A stretch of DNA of 35,567 nt from positions 62,001-97,567 of the IMG/VR virus record IMGVR_UViG_3300013902_000010. One strand, given 5' to 3'. Made by a program: the position numbers and the translations under genes. The notes under the pieces were generated by a model. The model made no database searches and had not been told where the DNA came from. It saw only the letters and a list, made by a program, of their open reading frames with translations. This document shows, piece by piece, positions 2,882-20,254 of the stretch. This DNA is from an uncultured virus (IMG/VR IMGVR_UViG_3300013902_000010) (lineage: Duplodnaviria; Heunggongvirae; Uroviricota; Caudoviricetes). Within the stretch, counting starts at the first letter, position 1, and the number at the start of each line of letters is the position of its first letter.

Positions 2882-4100
2882 ATGCAAACAAACGTAACCT
2901 TGGAGGAAGCCTTGCAGCGTGCCTCCCGACCTTTGCAGAAAAAGATAATGCATTCCGTGGAGTTGTTGAGGAAAGCGGAAAAGATTGCGCTTTCCTACGA
3001 TAAGACGGATGGCTTCTATCTCACTTTCAGCGGAGGCAAGGATAGCCAGGCTCTTCTACATATAGCGCAAATTGGGGGGGTGAAATTCAAACCTCACATG
3101 AGCCTCACGAGCGTGGACCCACCCGAAGTTATTCGTTTCGTGAAGCGAAATTACCCCGAAGTGGAATTGATAAAGCCAAAGGATTCTATCTATAATATCG
3201 CCATTAAGCGCAAGATTCTCCCTACGATGAGAGTAAGATGGTGTTGTGCGGAATACAAGGAGAATGCCGGTGCAGGAAAAGTTACTTTGATAGGCATTCG
3301 TCATGCAGAGAGTTCTCGTAGAGCCAAACGCAACGAAGTAGAGATTTCTTCCCGAAAGTTTAGTGGCTCGCTCGAAGAATTGGAAGAGTACCGACATGAA
3401 CAACGAGTAAAACGTGCCAAGAAAAAATCGCAAAAGGATGGCATCAATATCATGAATGCCGACCAAGAGCAAACATTGGGCTGCATCCATGGAAAAGAAT
3501 CCCTGCTTATCTCTCCTATCATCCATTGGACGGAGAAAGATGTTTGGGAGTTTCTGAACGGCGTAGTGCAAGTGCCGCATTGCGAACTATACGATGAGGG
3601 CTGGCATCGTATCGGCTGCATCGGTTGCCCGATGTCAAACAAGAAACATCATTTGATGGAAGAGAAACGTTGGCCTCACGTAAAGCGCAACTGGATTAAG
3701 GCTATCAAAGCCATCAGAAATGGGGGGGTATTCAAAGGAGAATATATTTGGTGGAATATCCAAGCGAACCCAAGAATGTGGGGGGGTGGTCGGAAGTCCA
3801 AACCCAAGGTACGTTATCAACAGAGAATGGTTACAACGACCAGAACAATGGCTACGAGTTCCGAGCCAACAACCAAGGCTTCTACATCAACGACAAGGTT
3901 ATGCAAGCCTTTCGACCATTTTCGGGTTTTCTGAAAGCTCCTCGCCTGACCGCTTGACTGAGGAGCAAGAAAATGAAATAGCGGAAAACATCTATGATTG
4001 GTGGATTTCGGGCATCGGCTACCGAGAATGGTATGCCAAGAAGTTCCTTCAACAAAAGATAGATTTCGATTTCTCGGAAGAGAAAGAGGACGATACATAA
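2882..4100 (+). CDS. PAPS reductase-family (CysH/DndC-like) protein; C-terminus out of frame across G7 tracts
   Basis: SGGKDS PP-loop, RWCC and RIGCIGCP motifs in ORF 2882-3934. The plausible natural C-terminus (ENIYDWWISG...QQKIDF) is in ORF 3720-4100. G7 runs at 3074-3080 (in frame), 3722-3728 and 3780-3786. Confidence 0.8.
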
Positions 4101-4922: not shown

Positions 4923-5139
4923 TAAGGTGCCGCCGTTCCGTCCCGATCCTGAGCACTGGACTCGAAAGGGACCGCATGGGTGGAAGGCGAAGGTGGCTTA
5001 TGAGACGGAGGACGATGCCTGCGAATACTTGCAGTTGCACCCTAAGATTGTGGCGCAAGGGTATCGGGCGTACCAGTGCAAGGTTTGCCAGAAATGGCAC
5101 ATCGGGCACGAAAATACATTAACATTTAAAGACAGATGA
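4885..5139 (+). CDS. Small basic protein with a CxxC...H motif
   Basis: AYQCKVCQKWHIGH; overlaps both neighbours. Confidence 0.55.
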   Translation: MAMRSKKSNHYHNKVPPFRPDPEHWTRKGPHGWKAKVAYETEDDACEYLQLHPKIVAQGYRAYQCKVCQKWHIGHENTLTFKDR

Positions 5140-5803
5140 TAGAACTGAATAAAGTATATAATGAGGATTGCTTGGAGGGCATGAAGCGAATACCCGATGC
5201 AAGTGTGTCGCTCGTACTTACGGATATTCCTTATAACGAATGTAATCGCCCAGATAATGGATTGCGTAGTTTAAATAAAGAATATGCGGATGTAGGTTTG
5301 TTTAATCTAAAAGAATTAACATCTACCCTTTGCAGAAAAACAAAAGGTAGCATTTATATGTTCTGTGGTATTAATCAACTTTCTACTATTCGTTCCGTGA
5401 TGCAAGAGTATAAGCTTAGCACGAGGGTTATAGTTTGGGAAAAGACAAACCCTTCACCGATGAATGGCAATAAAATTTGGTTAAGCGGTGTAGAGCTGTG
5501 CGTATATGGCAAGAAAACGGGGGGGTGTTTAACCTTCATTGTAAGAATACCGTGTTACGTTATCCTTGCGGACATAGCAATATACACCCCACACAAAAGC
5601 CCACTAAACTGTTTCGTAAGCTGATTCTTGCAAGCACTAATGAAAACGATACGGTTTTAGACCCATTTTTGGGCAGCGGCACTACTGCCATCGCTTGCAT
5701 CAAGGAGAAGCGCAACTTCATCGGGTTTGAACTAAACAAGGAGTATTACGACAAGGCTTGCAAGCGCATCGAATTGGAGATGATGCAGCCTACCCTATTC
5801 TAA
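5136..5803 (+). pseudogene. Beta-class N4-C/N6-A DNA methyltransferase, frameshifted at G7 (likely phase-OFF)
   Basis: LTDIPY catalytic motif in ORF 5136-5624; HPTQKP and DPFLGSGTT in ORF 5477-5803. Adding one G to the run at 5519-5525 joins them into a 222 aa protein. Confidence 0.85.
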
Positions 5804-8502: not shown

Positions 8503-9414
8503 ATGTATATTTCAATTTTAGATTACAGTAGTGGAACTGTCACAATTATCAACGACGAGGATAATGCGACTAAGAATTTGCAGAATGACGATATAGAAGC
8601 TATCCTATATGCCTTAGGATTTAAGGATTCCCAAATCAGCTATATGGTGACAGAGGATGATCCGATGGAAGACGCGTATGGCTACGTTACGCTAAACGAG
8701 TTGGCCGAGGATGCTGATGAAGACATCATAGAGTGGATAAACCGTCAAATCAATGTTTCTGCCGAGAGTGAAGAAACCGATGGGGATAACATTTCAAATA
8801 ACAATAATAATATGGATAACAAAAAAGATTGGGTAGGCGGGACTGCTTCCGTCTTTAAAACATTAGGCGCAAGTAATCATACCGATACCGACCGCCAGCG
8901 TGAAGACTATTATGCCACGGAGCCTGCGGCTACGGAGTGGCTATGCAAGATTGAGAAATTCGATGGTCCGATATTGGAGCCATCGTGCGGCGAGGGTCAT
9001 ATCAGTAAGGTCTTGCTGAAGAATGGCTACGAGGTAGAGAGTCGAGACTTGGTAGATAGAGGTTACGGCGATGGAGGCATAGACTTCTTGGCGATAGACA
9101 ACCTCTCGTGGAACGGCGATATTGTTACCAATCCGCCATACAAATATGCCAAAGAGTTTGTAGAGAAGTCTTTGGCGATTATTCCAGATGGGCATAAGGT
9201 AGCGATGTTTTTGAAGCTTACTTTCTTAGAGGGTAAGGGTAGAAGACATCTGTTTAACACTACCCCCCCCTCAAGGGTTTGGGTATCAAGCAGCCGCTTG
9301 AAATGTGCGCCTAATGGCGACTTCAACGCTTTGCAGGGTAGTGCAGCCGCTTACGCTTGGTTCGTATGGGAGAAAGGTTACAAGGGCGACACCATTGTGA
9401 AATGGTTCAACTGA
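8503..9414 (+). CDS. N6-adenine DNA methyltransferase with an acidic N-terminal extension
   Basis: DYYAT, ILEPSCGEG (SAM binding) and VTNPPY (catalytic) motifs. Possible internal start at 8812. In-frame C8 run at 9263-9270. Confidence 0.85.
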   Translation: MYISILDYSSGTVTIINDEDNATKNLQNDDIEAILYALGFKDSQISYMVTEDDPMEDAYGYVTLNELAEDADEDIIEWINRQINVSAESEETDGDNISNNNNNMDNKKDWVGGTASVFKTLGASNHTDTDRQREDYYATEPAATEWLCKIEKFDGPILEPSCGEGHISKVLLKNGYEVESRDLVDRGYGDGGIDFLAIDNLSWNGDIVTNPPYKYAKEFVEKSLAIIPDGHKVAMFLKLTFLEGKGRRHLFNTTPPSRVWVSSSRLKCAPNGDFNALQGSAAAYAWFVWEKGYKGDTIVKWFN

Positions 9415-9635: not shown

Positions 9636-9949
9636 CTACAACTCTACGAACACGCATAGCTGCTGCCCTTGGCTTGTAAGGGCATTGGCGAGCCTACCCC
9701 CCCGATTGTTCTACTTCGACGTATCGCCGACGTAGGATAGGCGAGGTCGCAAACGCCACCCACGGGACAATCGGTATAACCCTGTTCCGTGGCTTGGCGA
9801 ATGCGAAGGAAGGTATCGCCCGATGCGGCATCGCTCACCATCTGAAGGAATGGCAACGATGTGTCGTATATTCTATATAATGTACCATCTGGATAGAAGC
9901 CGTATCGCTTGCCATTCTTGATGATGGTACCTCGCTTGTATTGTGGCAT
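9636..9949 (-). pseudogene. Orphan C5-MTase target-recognition-like module, frameshifted at G7
   Basis: LRIRQATEQGY...CDLAYPTSAIRRSRTI followed by G7 (9697-9703). G8 gives GGGRLANALTSQGQQLCVFVEL*, 104 aa in total. Confidence 0.65.
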
Positions 9950-9993
9950 TGTCTTTTGCTCTTTTACTTTTTTACCTTTTTACCTTTTTACTC

Positions 9994-17148: not shown

Positions 17149-17305
17149 TTATTCATACCCGATGATGATTAAGAAGTCCTTGGCGATGGAAGAGATGGCA
17201 TTGCTAACTCCACCCCCCCCGTATTTCCAGCCTTTGCTCATGCTTGGAATGATACCAATCTCCATCGCTTCTGCCACGGCTTGCGCACGTCCTTACTTGT
17301 AACAT
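17149..17305 (-). pseudogene. TRD-like module G (OFF; G8, in frame as G7)
   Basis: MLQVRTCASRGRSDGDWYHSKHEQRLEIR, then G8 (17213-17220). G7 gives GGGVSNAISSIAKDFLIIIGYE*, 51 aa. Confidence 0.7.
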
Positions 17306-17472
17306 ACTCCTATCAAGTTATCGGTTGTGAGAAACGTGCCGATGCACTGCATCGTCTCGTGGGCAAAGATGAGCGAGACTTGCTTGTCTCGGAAATCATT
17401 CCTGCCCGTAAGCTTGCGCACCTGCTTGGCGTGCTCGGTTCTGGCTTCTCTTATCAGAAATATTCTGTGCAT
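17293..17472 (-). CDS. TRD-like module F (intact)
   Basis: MHRIFLIREARTEHAKQVRK...MQCIGTFLTTDNLIGVCYK*, 59 aa. Resembles module E. Confidence 0.7.
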   Translation of the reverse strand: MHRIFLIREARTEHAKQVRKLTGRNDFRDKQVSLIFAHETMQCIGTFLTTDNLIGVCYK

Positions 17473-17638
17473 AATAAATTGTCTTTTGTCACAGTGGAAA
17501 TCGTGTTGCTCCACGGCTCACGACTCATCCTGTGATATTTGTCTTGATACTTGCACCCCCCGTATCTCCGTAAAGACGGCGGAAGGCTTTTGCCTCTTCC
17601 GTGCGGTAGTGGGTAAGGATGGCTCTGCGCTCACTCAT
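17454..17638 (-). pseudogene. TRD-like module E (OFF; G6, in frame as G7)
   Basis: MSERRAILTHYRTEEAKAFRRLYGDT, then G6 (17556-17561). G7 gives GGCKYQDKYHRMSREPWSNTISTVTKDNLLCTEYF*, 61 aa. Confidence 0.7.
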
Positions 17639-17780
17639 AGATTAACAGAAGCATAGTATGTTGACCATGGTTGTCGTAGAGGCCGCCCCAGCCATCGTAT
17701 CTGGAAGAGAGTGCCGTGGAATACCTCCCCCGAAAACTTATCGTGTCACCTCGCTTCACGAAAGGTCTTGTCTTATTCAT
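17631..17780 (-). CDS. TRD-like module D (intact; G5)
   Basis: MNKTRPFVKRGDTISFRGRYSTALSSRYDGWGGLYDNHGQHTMLLLIYE*, 49 aa, with 8-nt overlaps to both neighbours. Confidence 0.7.
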   Translation of the reverse strand: MNKTRPFVKRGDTISFRGRYSTALSSRYDGWGGLYDNHGQHTMLLLIYE

Positions 17781-17919
17781 AACTTACTAATATTGCTTGT
17801 GCTTTAACCTTAGACGTTGTATTAGGGATGATATTAGCGAATCCCTCCTTGTGATAATGCGCAGTAATCGCCCCACCGATTCTCTGCGAAGGAGTATTGA
17901 TGAAACAGATCTCAATCAT
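17773..17919 (-). CDS. TRD-like module C (intact)
   Basis: MIEICFINTPSQRIGGAITAHYHKEGFANIIPNTTSKVKAQAILVSYE*, 48 aa. Confidence 0.7.
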   Translation of the reverse strand: MIEICFINTPSQRIGGAITAHYHKEGFANIIPNTTSKVKAQAILVSYE

Positions 17920-18063
17920 ACTCTATCAATATCTTTGGTTTATCAACATCATGCCCTTTACCCCCCCAGATATACACAGGGCGATACCCTTGGGCGATAC
18001 CACCACGCCATTTTGTGATGGCGAGTATTTACCGAGGATGATGGGGAAGAAATCTTGCCTCAT
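17912..18063 (-). pseudogene. TRD-like module B (OFF; G7, in frame as G8)
   Basis: MRQDFFPIILGKYSPSQNGVVVSPKGIALCIS, then G7 (17961-17967). G8 gives GGGKGHDVDKPKILIEYD*, 50 aa. Confidence 0.7.
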
Positions 18064-18244
18064 AATTCTATCATTACTACCGTCATAGGATAATGCGCTA
18101 ACGAAAGAATATTGGTTGGCCCGATATTCTCGTACCTTGTGGTAATTGTCGCTGCACACATATCGCTTGTTACGTTGACCGGTTGTTGCCGCCCCCCTCA
18201 TTTAAGAGGCGAGATTTTCCAACCTTGGTTAGACAAAATTTCAT
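18060..18244 (-). pseudogene. TRD-like module A (OFF; G6, in frame as G7)
   Basis: The ATG overlaps the MTase stop (ATGA). MKFCLTKVGKSRLLNE, then G6 (18192-18197). G7 gives GGRQQPVNVTSDMCAATITTRYENIGPTNILSLAHYPMTVVMIEL*, 61 aa. Confidence 0.7.
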
Positions 18245-19644
18245 TCTTCCGAAGCCTTTCTATTCAGATTCTCCAAATATCTCTCACGGAAACCAGAGTA
18301 TTCGCTTGGCTCTGTGCCATCTTGTTTCCACGAAGAATAATCGTAGGTAAACTTGCCGACAATCATTTTCTCGCAGATAACTTTATCCAGTTCCGTAGGC
18401 TTCATTTCCCAGCCATTCACTTCCTCCATCCAAAACGAGAGCCATGTCTTGAGGAACATCGCATCCTCATGCTTGGGTGGAAGGTCGAACTGCACGAACA
18501 ATGCGCTGTCCTTGTCGTTTGCCTTGAGGAATTTTGATACCGCATCGTCTTTCAGGAAATATCTCTTATCCACCTCTTCTTCCAAGACATCCTCCAATTT
18601 CTTTTCCAGTTTGACAGGCTCAGGGAATTGGTAATCGAAAGCCACGTCTCTTCTCATCGAGAGGCAGAATACTCGGTCTCTGTTCTGTGGCACACCGTAA
18701 TCCTTGGCATTCAGTCTCGCCCATCGGTTCACGTAGCCAAGGCTCTCCAACTTCTGCAACCATTTCTTGAAGTCGGGCATGAACTTCTCGCTTACCAGTG
18801 CCGCCACATTCTCTTGCAGGAGATACTTAGGTTGCAATACTTCGATGGCATCGGCTACTCGCCAAAGCAAGGCACTTCGGGTGTCGCTACCCTCTTTCAG
18901 TCCCATCTGCTTGCCAGCCTGGCTGATGTCTTGGCAAGGAGATGAATAAGTAAACAAGTCCACCTCTCTGCCTTGCAAGCTATCCTTTACTTTGTGCCAA
19001 TCTATCTTGGTAATATCGCCAAGTGCTCGGTCGGCATATTGCGGAAACACGAGGTTGTGCATCTGACAGGCGTACTTGTCGATGTCGCTCCAACCCATGC
19101 ACGTCCATCTGAAATCGGGATGATCCTCACGCAAGGCATCAGCCGCCATCAACTGGCTGTCATATCCGCTGAAGGTAGTGATAATCACTTTCTCCTCTGG
19201 AGCCACCTTGTCGCCAGGCTGGATATTCGCCTTGTCGCTTGGGTCTTTCTCCACCGGCATAGACGGCAACACGTCGTCGGGAAAGAAATCATCGAAGAGC
19301 GATGCTTGCTGTGCCTGTGGTTGCTTGGGTGCTGGGTACCAAAGCTGCGAGTAGATGCTTTTCAGCACATCTACTACGATGGAGTTGCCAGCCTGCTTGT
19401 ATTGTTGGCTCGCCGATATAACCATATCATTATCGTTACCTTTTACAGCCTTGCCAAAGATATGTGCCCAAGCATCTTTGCCGAATGCGCTTGATATGCG
19501 AGTCTTGGCAAGGGATATGCTTGCTTGCATCAGGAGGATTACTCCGTCCCGAATGCCCATCAATCTGAAACACTCCTTGGGAGTCAGCTTTCTGATGGCA
19601 TACGATTTTATCGTTCTGTCCTTGAAGTTTATTTTTGTTATCAT
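18241..19644 (-). CDS. Circularly permuted C5-cytosine DNA methyltransferase core
   Basis: Motif order: IX (RKLTPKECFRLMG), X (YKQAGNSIVVDVL), linker, I (FSGYDS variant), II (WSDID), III (GDITKI), IV (SSPCQDIS), VI (QENV), VII (AKDYG), VIII (PQNRDRVF). Confidence 0.9.
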   Translation of the reverse strand: MITKINFKDRTIKSYAIRKLTPKECFRLMGIRDGVILLMQASISLAKTRISSAFGKDAWAHIFGKAVKGNDNDMVISASQQYKQAGNSIVVDVLKSIYSQLWYPAPKQPQAQQASLFDDFFPDDVLPSMPVEKDPSDKANIQPGDKVAPEEKVIITTFSGYDSQLMAADALREDHPDFRWTCMGWSDIDKYACQMHNLVFPQYADRALGDITKIDWHKVKDSLQGREVDLFTYSSPCQDISQAGKQMGLKEGSDTRSALLWRVADAIEVLQPKYLLQENVAALVSEKFMPDFKKWLQKLESLGYVNRWARLNAKDYGVPQNRDRVFCLSMRRDVAFDYQFPEPVKLEKKLEDVLEEEVDKRYFLKDDAVSKFLKANDKDSALFVQFDLPPKHEDAMFLKTWLSFWMEEVNGWEMKPTELDKVICEKMIVGKFTYDYSSWKQDGTEPSEYSGFRERYLENLNRKASEE

Positions 19645-19657
19645 TGTTACTTTGTTT

Positions 19658-19831
19658 TTATAATTCTATCAAAACATTACCAACGTTTCCACTTACCACG
19701 GCATAGGCAGGTTTTTTTGCATTGCTGATACAAAGTTCACTTACACCTCGCTTGTCTGGTGTATCGCGATAAAAGCGAATAGTATCATCTGCTCGCCACA
19801 CCATACGGATAAGGTCTTTTCTATTACTCAT
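19658..19831 (-). CDS. TRD-like module U3 (intact; in-frame A7)
   Basis: MSNRKDLIRMVWRADDTIRFYRDTPDKRGVSELCISNAKKPAYAVVSGNVGNVLIEL*, 57 aa. Confidence 0.65.
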   Translation of the reverse strand: MSNRKDLIRMVWRADDTIRFYRDTPDKRGVSELCISNAKKPAYAVVSGNVGNVLIEL

Positions 19832-19980
19832 ACTCTAATAATATTGCGGGTGGGTGGCTATCTGCCTTTACGCAACGAGATGTTCCATTAAAGAATATCC
19901 GATGCTCGAAACAATCAGAAAGATTGAAATATACCCCCCCCTATTTTGGGGATATGATAGTCTATCTTAATTTTATTCAT
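19824..19980 (-). pseudogene. TRD-like module U2 (OFF; G8, in frame as G7)
   Basis: MNKIKIDYHIPKI, then G8 (19934-19941). G7 gives GGVYFNLSDCFEHRIFFNGTSRCVKADSHPPAILLEYE*, 51 aa. Confidence 0.7.
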
Positions 19981-20155
19981 ACACGATTGCTATTACTGGT
20001 GTCTGCCCACCGCCTAACCCCATTGCCGAGGTGAGCGTGAAGCAAATATCCTTCAAAGAGCAAAAAGTATTCATTCCATGCGCTTGCATATTGCCAAACA
20101 CGGAAGTAGTCTCTATTTTTTTTACGATGATGGCTATAGCCTCTGCTCTAATCAT
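19973..20155 (-). CDS. TRD-like module U1 (intact; in-frame A8)
   Basis: MIRAEAIAII...ICFTLTSAMGLGGGQTPVIAIVYE*, 60 aa. The ORF-track start at 20266 runs through the tRNA, so the ATG at 20155 is preferred. Confidence 0.7.
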   Translation of the reverse strand: MIRAEAIAIIVKKIETTSVFGNMQAHGMNTFCSLKDICFTLTSAMGLGGGQTPVIAIVYE

Positions 20156-20181
20156 TGATATACCTTTTTTATTTATAATAG

Positions 20182-20254
20182 AGCTGAATACAGGACTCGA
20201 ACCTATGACCTTTCGCTTACAAGGCGAACGCTCTGCCAACTGAGCTAATCCAGC
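20182..20254 (-). tRNA. tRNA-Thr(UGU)
   Basis: Cloverleaf GCTGGAT-TA-GCTC AGTTGGCA GAGC-G-TTCGC CT TGT AA GCGAA-AGGTC-ATAGG TTCGAGT CCTGT-ATTCAGC-T, 73 nt. CCA is not encoded. Confidence 0.92.

Follow-up and report, generated by a model that had tools for sequence, protein, structure and literature searches.

The stretch of DNA analysed here, called the window, is 35,567 nucleotides (nt) long and comprises bases 62001-97567 of the 97.6-kilobase (kb) genome of an uncultured gut virus of the class Caudoviricetes (IMG/VR record IMGVR_UViG_3300013902_000010), which is judged 98% complete. On its minus strand it carries an intact, permuted C5-methyltransferase core flanked by ten mini-genes. Drawing on sequence comparison and on a predicted complex, we take these mini-genes to be, probably, a library of specificity subunits that would serve the core in trans and would be toggled by slippage at poly-G runs; this is the best reading that we can offer of the system. 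A first-pass annotation of the same DNA had already proposed interchangeable subunits of this kind. All ten of its mini-genes have single-frame orthologues in relatives, and five are out of frame here at runs of G, which it did not mention.

In what follows, G000 is the full 97.6-kb genome, L numbers denote loci of relatives, G001 is the complete genome behind L004, and P numbers denote proteins. The relatives are 138 stretches in a viral metagenome collection, each confirmed by its core. Of these, 80 were kept, each with 4-kb flanks, and together with the window they make up the 81 loci compared.

The permuted core and its mini-genes

The core (19644..18241, minus strand) is an intact open reading frame (ORF) of 467 amino acids (aa). 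When searched against Pfam, its residues 181-378 match positions 23-218 of PF00145, which hold motifs I-VIII (E 8.8e-52), while its first 100 residues match positions 294-320 together with a second stretch, the part that holds motifs IX-X. A six-frame scan of the 97.6-kb genome places PF00145 positions 261-291, 294-322 and 23-219 consecutively in a single 474-aa open frame, and it finds no PF00145 match elsewhere, so that this core is the only one. Since motifs IX-X precede motifs I-VIII within one frame, the permutation noticed in the first-pass annotation is real: motif X stands ahead of motif I in one polypeptide. All of the conserved motifs sit within the 467-aa chain, and they are not divided among subunits.

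In an alignment of 55 cores the chain begins with motifs IX-X; a variable linker leads to motifs I-VIII, after which come the conserved start of the variable region and a hypervariable tail. IRKLTP.ECFRLMG (motif IX) and QQYKQAGNSI (motif X) are invariant, and FSGYDSQ, SSPCQDIS, QENV and PQNRDR follow the linker in that order. The catalytic Pro-Cys (motif IV), ENV (VI) and QxRxR (VIII) are present in the core; across the aligned cores SPCQ, QENV and QNRDR are invariant or almost so. The conserved start of the variable region extends to about residue 400 and is followed by a hypervariable tail of about 70 residues, in which no TL-like or Gly-rich recognition element was found in the alignment of the 55 cores. 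Module homologues are likewise absent from the inside of the core. Only 17 residues precede motif IX, which leaves no N-terminal target recognition domain (TRD) there, and the chain has no TRD between motifs VIII and IX, its C-terminus being a helical tail. The AlphaFold2 model of the core, built from 55 close relatives, is poor as a whole, with a mean predicted local distance difference test score (pLDDT) of 64; residues 381-461 fold confidently into one strand and four helices (pLDDT 74-92 from residue 381).

Around this core, ten mini-genes (M1 to M10, hereafter modules) tile the minus strand, three upstream and seven downstream, as the first-pass annotation had laid them out. The modules are separate ORFs, each ending at a stop of its own, and the putative TRDs are therefore not in cis with the core. 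M1, M3, M6, M7 and M9 are intact, whereas M2, M4, M5, M8 and M10 each need one frameshift; in three-frame translation all five breaks coincide with coding-strand runs of G (G8, G6, G7, G6 and G8, respectively). The same translation contains all ten of the C-terminal strands and all six of the TL-like peptides that had been listed before. The modules share a layout of a TL-like turn, a Gly-rich turn and a last strand.

On the upstream side, M1 (20155-19973; 60 aa, ending ...FTLTSAMGLGGGQTPVIAIVYE) lies immediately downstream of a tRNA-Thr gene (20181-20254). It has orthologues in 17 segments of relatives, with a ratio of nonsynonymous to synonymous substitution rates (dN/dS) of 0.19. M2 (19980-19824), whose start overlaps the stop of M1 by 8 nt, is out of frame at G8 (19934-19941) and has single-frame orthologues of 50 aa. 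M3 (19831-19658; 57 aa, ending ...GNVLIEL) is intact, is separated from the core by 13 nt, and has orthologues that in relatives often stand downstream of the core.

On the downstream side, M4 (18244-18060) begins with an ATG that overlaps the core stop (ATGA); it is out of frame at G6 (18192-18197) and has orthologues. M5 (18063-17912) is out of frame at G7 (17961-17967), is intact with G8 in L003, and is the module for which docking on the core is predicted below. M6 (17919-17773; 48 aa) and M7 (17780-17631; 49 aa) are intact; M6 is supported by single-frame orthologues and dN/dS, and M7 has orthologues and carries an in-frame G5 at a site where relatives have G6-G9. M8 (17638-17454) is out of frame at G6 (17556-17561), and M9 (17472-17293; 59 aa) is intact, with a first half related to M8; both have orthologues. 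M10 (17305-17149), out of frame at G8 (17213-17220), starts at the ATG at 17305, as do the intact M10 modules of relatives, rather than at the GTG of the 42-aa ORF listed for it. Module starts overlap the prior stop by 4 to 19 nt, mostly as ATGA or ATGAxTAA, and the conserved final Tyr-Glu/Asp of the modules is due in part to this overlap of start and stop codons.

All ten families have single-frame orthologues of 46-60 aa in relatives. In 79 of the 81 loci, all but L004 and L006, homologues of the window's modules adjoin the core and share its strand. Pairwise dN/dS in the inferred frames is 0.10-0.27 in nine families, and 0.51 from only seven informative pairs for M2; purifying selection thus acts on the modules in these frames. 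Their order and side vary among genomes, with the M1, M3 and M4 types upstream of the core in some and downstream in others. Chaining of ORFs over the 76 loci with an unbroken core gave a median of at least 5 and a maximum of at least 12 modules per locus. It yielded in total at least 381 modules in 27 clusters, about 22 of which we judge credible; these counts are lower bounds, as chains break at gaps of more than 60 nt.

Hidden Markov models (HMMs) of the module clusters, run over the whole genome, revealed three further modules 42-53 kb from the core, all on the minus strand. These are a 43-aa module at G000:26901-26770 with an in-frame G7 run, an M5-like module at about G000:38100-37946 (...RVYSPDGIAPACHTCGGGGQHPKILIEL) with an in-frame G8 run, and a 43-aa module at G000:37949-37818. 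The genome therefore holds at least 13 modules, and the library, with about 22 families in relatives, is both larger and more dispersed than the first-pass annotation had described. A similar arrangement is found in G001, where no module adjoins the core and the only three modules found lie about 5 kb downstream (35442-36117, plus strand). Given a single core per genome, dispersed modules can act only in trans, if they act at all.

Two further observations concern these loci. A 482-aa protein, P0013, has the appearance of a fusion of core and M5; we discarded it as evidence of function in cis, as its module frame is read back through the 3' end of the core. In L045 (5299-5490) and in seven other loci, the first gene after the core encodes, in place of a TRD-like module, a 63-aa protein with two CxxC pairs that resembles a zinc ribbon (cluster 13).

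Homology with recognition domains and predicted docking

A profile of the M10 type, built from 13 sequences and run against 1.84 billion representative proteins, gave 695 matches at E<=1e-3. Among the best 150 of these 695, sorted by size, 50 are free-standing proteins of 50-78 aa, 31 have 81-199 aa and 69 have at least 200 aa. Of 30 long matches that were scanned, 29 are PF00145 proteins. The match in P0183, a canonical enzyme of 379 aa, covers residues 269-314 and reads ...ASRGRNPSNPSDRTVGNPTEQRLEPNSQGISNALSSVQKDNMVLE, with motif IX directly after it; because this match ends at motif IX, the module ends where the core begins. The M8 type shares 43% identity with residues 388-442 of the 492-aa protein P0211, which is a PF00145 enzyme of full length; the aligned stretch of P0211 comes after another TRD-like stretch and resembles, by eye, the first half of M9. 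By sequence, then, homology with TRDs holds for three module types, namely M8, M9 and M10.

Some relatives, such as P0169, P0059 and P0211, carry TRDs in cis. In P0169 they stand ahead of a chain ordered IX-X-I-VIII, and its motif X region is almost identical to that of the core. Another form is seen in P0059, P0065, P0081, P0133, P0170, P0190 and P0089 (369-541 aa), which consist of long TRD arrays followed by motifs IX-X only, without motifs I-VIII; they look like the multi-TRD subunits of split C5-methyltransferases.

The first-pass annotation had suggested that modules might dock through their common C-terminal strand, and a structure prediction of the core with M5 supports this. The interaction score derived from predicted aligned errors (ipSAE) was 0.87 (0.88, 0.86 and 0.87 in the individual runs) versus 0.00 for the best of three controls. 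At least 91% of the contacts were common to the runs, and the pLDDT of the partner was 72 or higher. In the contacts of lowest predicted error, ILIEY (M5 residues 45-49) lies on residues 14-18 of the core, which belong to the strand ahead of motif IX; the last strand of M5 as a whole is placed on core residues 13-20. In the same model the TL-like loop of M5 (residues 24-29) contacts core residues 319-321 (motif VIII) and residue 350, and other contacts involve core residues 82-87 (motif X) and 345-399. The predicted position of M5 is the place of the TRD in single-chain enzymes, which supports binding as far as a model can. All the computational tests that were run favour the central idea of the first-pass annotation, a single permuted core with interchangeable TRD subunits that would dock in trans; taken as a whole, we consider its interpretation partly supported.

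Poly-G runs and frame state

Among the relatives, 32 modules with a G run of at least 6 are shifted and 27 are in frame; of those with shorter runs or none, 14 are shifted and 308 in frame. In most relatives these glycines are encoded by runs that are interrupted, and the frame is stably kept. Within one flanking context, run length sets the frame state, as seen for M5, M7, M10 and M3. Thus, M5 is on with G8 and off with G7 and G10; M7, in its main context, is on with G8 and off with G6, G7 and G9; and M10 is on with G8 and off with G7 and G9. M3 is on with G7 and off with G6 and G9 in two contexts, with G8 also off in the main one; a third context of M3, offset by 1 nt, departs from the simple rule of length and frame.

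The window and L003 are 99.5% identical, and downstream of the core their indels occur only at the runs of M5 and M8. The M5 run is G7 in the window, G8 in L003, where the frame is restored, and G9 in a contig of X1, the sole public run containing the sequence, which was available as assembled contigs. The M8 run is G6 in the window and G8 in L003; the X1 contig has no listed length change here, hence 6. At the M10 run the X1 contigs break. Downstream of the core, indels that set X1 apart from the window likewise fall only at such runs.

Such runs are also more frequent than expected. Genome-wide, 14 G/C runs of at least 7 are observed versus 5.5 expected from shuffles, in contrast to A/T runs of at least 8, which show no enrichment (5 observed versus 4.6 expected), and the 3-kb array alone holds 5 of the genome's 17 G/C runs of at least 6. 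An in-frame homopolymer that sets the frame, with lengths that are polymorphic among near-identical genomes, is the signature of contingency loci, and the module runs bear it. In the window's closest lineage, run-bearing modules beside the core are in frame in 0 of 5 cases in the window, 0 of 7 in L002 and 1 of 5 in L003, or 1 of 17 in total.

Runs of this kind occur in other genes of the window as well. A second methyltransferase gene (phrog_67; 5136-5800, plus strand), amino-methyltransferase-like with DPFLGSGTT and HPTQKP, is divided into the overlapping frames 5136-5621 and 5477-5800, and the split falls exactly on a G7 run (5519-5525). Among the modification genes, a possible switch is therefore not confined to the C5 modules. 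An ORF resembling 3'-phosphoadenosine 5'-phosphosulfate (PAPS) reductases (phrog_424; 2882-4097, plus strand) has G7 runs at 3074, 3722 and 3780. At the runs at 3722 and 3780 another frame (3684-4097) opens, which could switch the C-terminal tail. A 101-aa ORF on the minus strand (9647-9979), with G7 at 9697-9703, begins with YKRGTI.K.GK.YG.YPD, which resembles the start of the free-standing, module-type protein P0137, and it is possibly one more recognition gene, of larger size. Next to it lies a phrog_799 methyltransferase gene (8503-9414) that has an in-frame C8 run at 9263-9270.

Proposed mechanism, rival explanations and known systems

We propose the following mechanism. The catalytic chain holds motifs IX-X, motifs I-VIII and the opening, conserved portion of the variable region, and it would lack the piece that reads DNA. 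The detached piece would comprise the two recognition loops, the TL-like turn, a Gly-rich turn and the final beta-strand ahead of motif IX. Separate genes of 43-60 residues would encode it repeatedly; ten of these surround the core, and three or more lie at other places in the genome. A mini-protein would associate with the core in trans by pairing its C-terminal strand with the N-terminal strand of the core, while its TL-like loop would pack on motif VIII, and the assembled enzyme would be complete, with the specificity of the bound module. Modules would then compete for one core, such that several motifs could be methylated per infection. In this lineage many modules encode their Gly-rich turn with a G run that nothing interrupts; slippage during replication would alter the run length and bring a module into or out of frame, and a phage population would carry a shifting mix of methylation repertoires. 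The outcome might conceivably be bet-hedging against host restriction enzymes and methylation-dependent nucleases.

A stronger form of this proposal is one to which we would give an even chance. It sees the system as a combinatorial methylome generator, in which at least 13 free-standing subunits (43-60 aa) from across the genome would serve one permuted core, out of about 22 families in the phage group. Seven of them would have independent poly-G switches, giving up to 2^7 repertoires per lysate. No smaller autonomous DNA-specificity subunits would be known, and the whole would be the first Type I-like C5 enzyme with an exchangeable subunit akin to the specificity (S) subunit.

Three other explanations have to be weighed against the switched library. 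The module library could be real and its poly-G breaks nothing but assembly or sequencing errors at homopolymers, or the result of modules decaying neutrally in this lineage. The near absence of in-frame run-bearing modules beside the core fits such an account, as do the single public run with the sequence, whose contigs break at one G run, and the many relatives that keep the same glycines stably in frame through interrupted runs. It is nevertheless unlikely in our view: modules with long runs are in frame in 27 of 59 cases across relatives, frame state tracks run length within one context (M5 being off with G7, on with G8 and off again with G10), the indels downstream of the core that separate 99.5%-identical genomes are confined to these runs, and G/C runs are enriched where A/T runs are not. 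A further account has decoding itself link one module with another or with the core, through programmed ribosomal frameshifting, transcriptional slippage or read-through of junctions, with a long, multispecific cis enzyme as the product. G runs can promote slippage of polymerases and ribosomes, and the junctions are compact (ATGA or ATGAxTAA). We nonetheless hold this to be very improbable, because the frame changes required differ between modules (one G fewer for M2 and M10, one more for M4, M5 and M8), near-identical genomes show the same module in and out of frame, and every junction has a stop codon in the frame of the module. Moreover, 1 nt can be missing from the spacer that separates M3 from the core, and dispersed modules cannot be joined at all.

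The core might instead be self-sufficient, its C-terminal 130 or so residues after motif VIII providing the recognition, in which case the mini-genes would be remnants of multispecific cis enzymes or spare parts for them, perhaps silent cassettes that recombination carries into an expression site. The hypervariability of the last 70 or so residues among relatives and their confident fold as part of a strand and four-helix unit would suit this explanation, and so would the shuffling of module order and side among genomes, a mark of cassette recombination, and the existence of relatives with TRDs in cis. Against this explanation, every module has its own ATG overlapping the prior stop and is under purifying selection, modules occur up to 53 kb away from the core, and free-standing proteins of 50-78 aa make up a third of the best 150 M10-type representative matches. 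Neither inverted repeats nor an expression slot were found, and the core has no TL-like element, Gly-rich element or module homologue. The sole core-module fusion found, P0013, is a frameshifted read-through. We therefore regard this explanation as quite improbable.

A number of observations weigh against the preferred reading, that of trans-acting subunits toggled by poly-G slippage. Homology searches are divided: larger searches link the M8, M9 and M10 types to variable regions, but when 12 natural modules that are intact were scanned against Pfam (E up to 10) and PHROGs (E up to 1), no meaningful match emerged, and the M10 and M5 alignments had 0 matches among PDB sequence profiles (E up to 10). 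When M10 and M5 were compared with hhalign, only five C-terminal residues were aligned, at a probability of 1.3%. For M1-M7 the case as TRDs rests on common layout and context. As regards docking, M5 is the one module that was folded with the core. The ipSAE mark is reached by 116 of 157 solved complexes and by 2 of 215 mismatched pairs, a calibration that holds roughly here, with custom alignments used for both chains. A known fold cut into two halves often passes complex scoring, and the score may reflect the model's memory of the single-chain C5-methyltransferase fold.

The poly-G evidence has its own counterweights. One module in 17 switched on beside the core is fewer than random switching predicts. 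Run lengths come from assemblies, in which homopolymer error is possible, and it is from differences between genomes that we infer switching within one phage population. Finally, the cores of five relatives (L026, L031, L043, L044 and L063; core at 4001- or 1437-) each contain a single nonsense codon, namely TAA for Q, E, Y and Y and TGA for W, with the modules retained. The system is thus dispensable at times and is sometimes lost. Recoding of stop codons was ruled out as an explanation, as the in-frame stops replace Q, E, Y and W. Occasional loss of the core would fit a cost of methylation, for example in hosts with methylation-dependent nucleases.

The closest known counterparts are the multispecific C5-methyltransferases of Bacillus phages, such as M.SPRI, M.Phi3TI, M.Rho11sI and M.H2I. 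In these enzymes, as would be the case here, one catalytic framework is used with several short TRDs (about 40-70 aa), each thought to set its own target, in a phage setting and with a presumed anti-restriction role. Moreover, the M8/M9 and M10 types are found as tandem TRDs in long PF00145 proteins. The difference is that theirs lie in cis between motifs VIII and IX, whereas here they are separate genes, some of them distant and many with poly-G.

Split and permuted C5-methyltransferases can be active (PMC3404938, PMC5944983). The first of these describes M.AquI and M.EcoHK31I as two-chain C5-methyltransferases, the former split between motifs I-VIII and IX-X and the latter with motif IX detached, and it treats complementation by fragments as known (PMC3404938). 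The likeness lies in a C5-methyltransferase assembled from separate polypeptides and split in or beside the variable region, which here is a prediction. The difference lies in their one fixed partner each; here all ten motifs are in one chain, and the recognition piece alone would be detached, with many partners. Unlike the subunits of the M.AquI type, the modules have no conserved motif and no Pfam match. Natural circular permutants include M.BssHII, M.Alw26I, M2.Eco31IC, M.Esp3I and M2.BsaI, which likewise have motif X ahead of motif I and a break within the variable region; they mostly keep a TRD ahead of motif IX (type H), whereas this core has no recognition loops of its own (PMC5944983). 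P0169 shares the layout of these permutants, with cis TRDs ahead of motif IX.

With regard to switching, the system resembles the Mod phasevarions and the Type I hsdS genes in that in-frame simple-sequence repeats switch methylation specificity and in that Type I specificity resides on a separate subunit. These bacterial counterparts are chromosomal N6-adenine systems of Type III and Type I with one or few switches, whereas the present one would be a phage C5 enzyme with up to seven independently switchable subunits of 50 aa per core. Homopolymer slippage in phage genes has been proposed as bet-hedging against host defence for contingency loci of T2 and T4 (PMC12633550, a preprint). These loci are coliphage genes such as agt and rIIA; the preprint describes no modular specificity library, and a search count for the word methyltransferase gave zero occurrences (PMC12633550). 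In the literature covered, outside of which lay most subscription journals and REBASE, we came upon neither free-standing TRD genes nor switchable phage C5 modules. The parts are known singly, and what appears to be new is their combination: ten motifs in one chain, a recognition piece that alone is detached, many partners of about 50 residues, and individual switches.

If the preferred reading is true, the recognition part of a C5-methyltransferase would be a portable unit of about 50 residues that functions in trans. Domain-swap work on multispecific enzymes has long hinted at portable recognition units; to our knowledge, one acting in trans has not been seen so far as a natural design. The system would also explain how abundant gut phages follow the changing restriction repertoires of their hosts, would amount to a second, switchable layer of phage epigenetic camouflage, and could provide a natural scaffold for programmable cytosine methylation. 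The design is common, as 138 related stretches were confirmed and 50 of the best 150 M10-type representative clusters are free-standing mini-proteins.

As for the phage itself, no match emerged when the region was compared by megablast with 50,697 phage records, and tblastn of the core and of a 1230-aa neighbour gene against deposited phage records gave distant matches only, the nearest being a Polaribacter phage primase (21%). Among the relatives, L091-L097 fall in metagenome bins labelled Prevotella (two), Oscillibacter, Oscillospiraceae, Clostridium, Anaerobutyricum and one nameless bacterium, a mixture that is probably the result of mis-binning. A Prevotella bin holds one contig of 94.5 kb, which is comparable in size to the entire phage genome.

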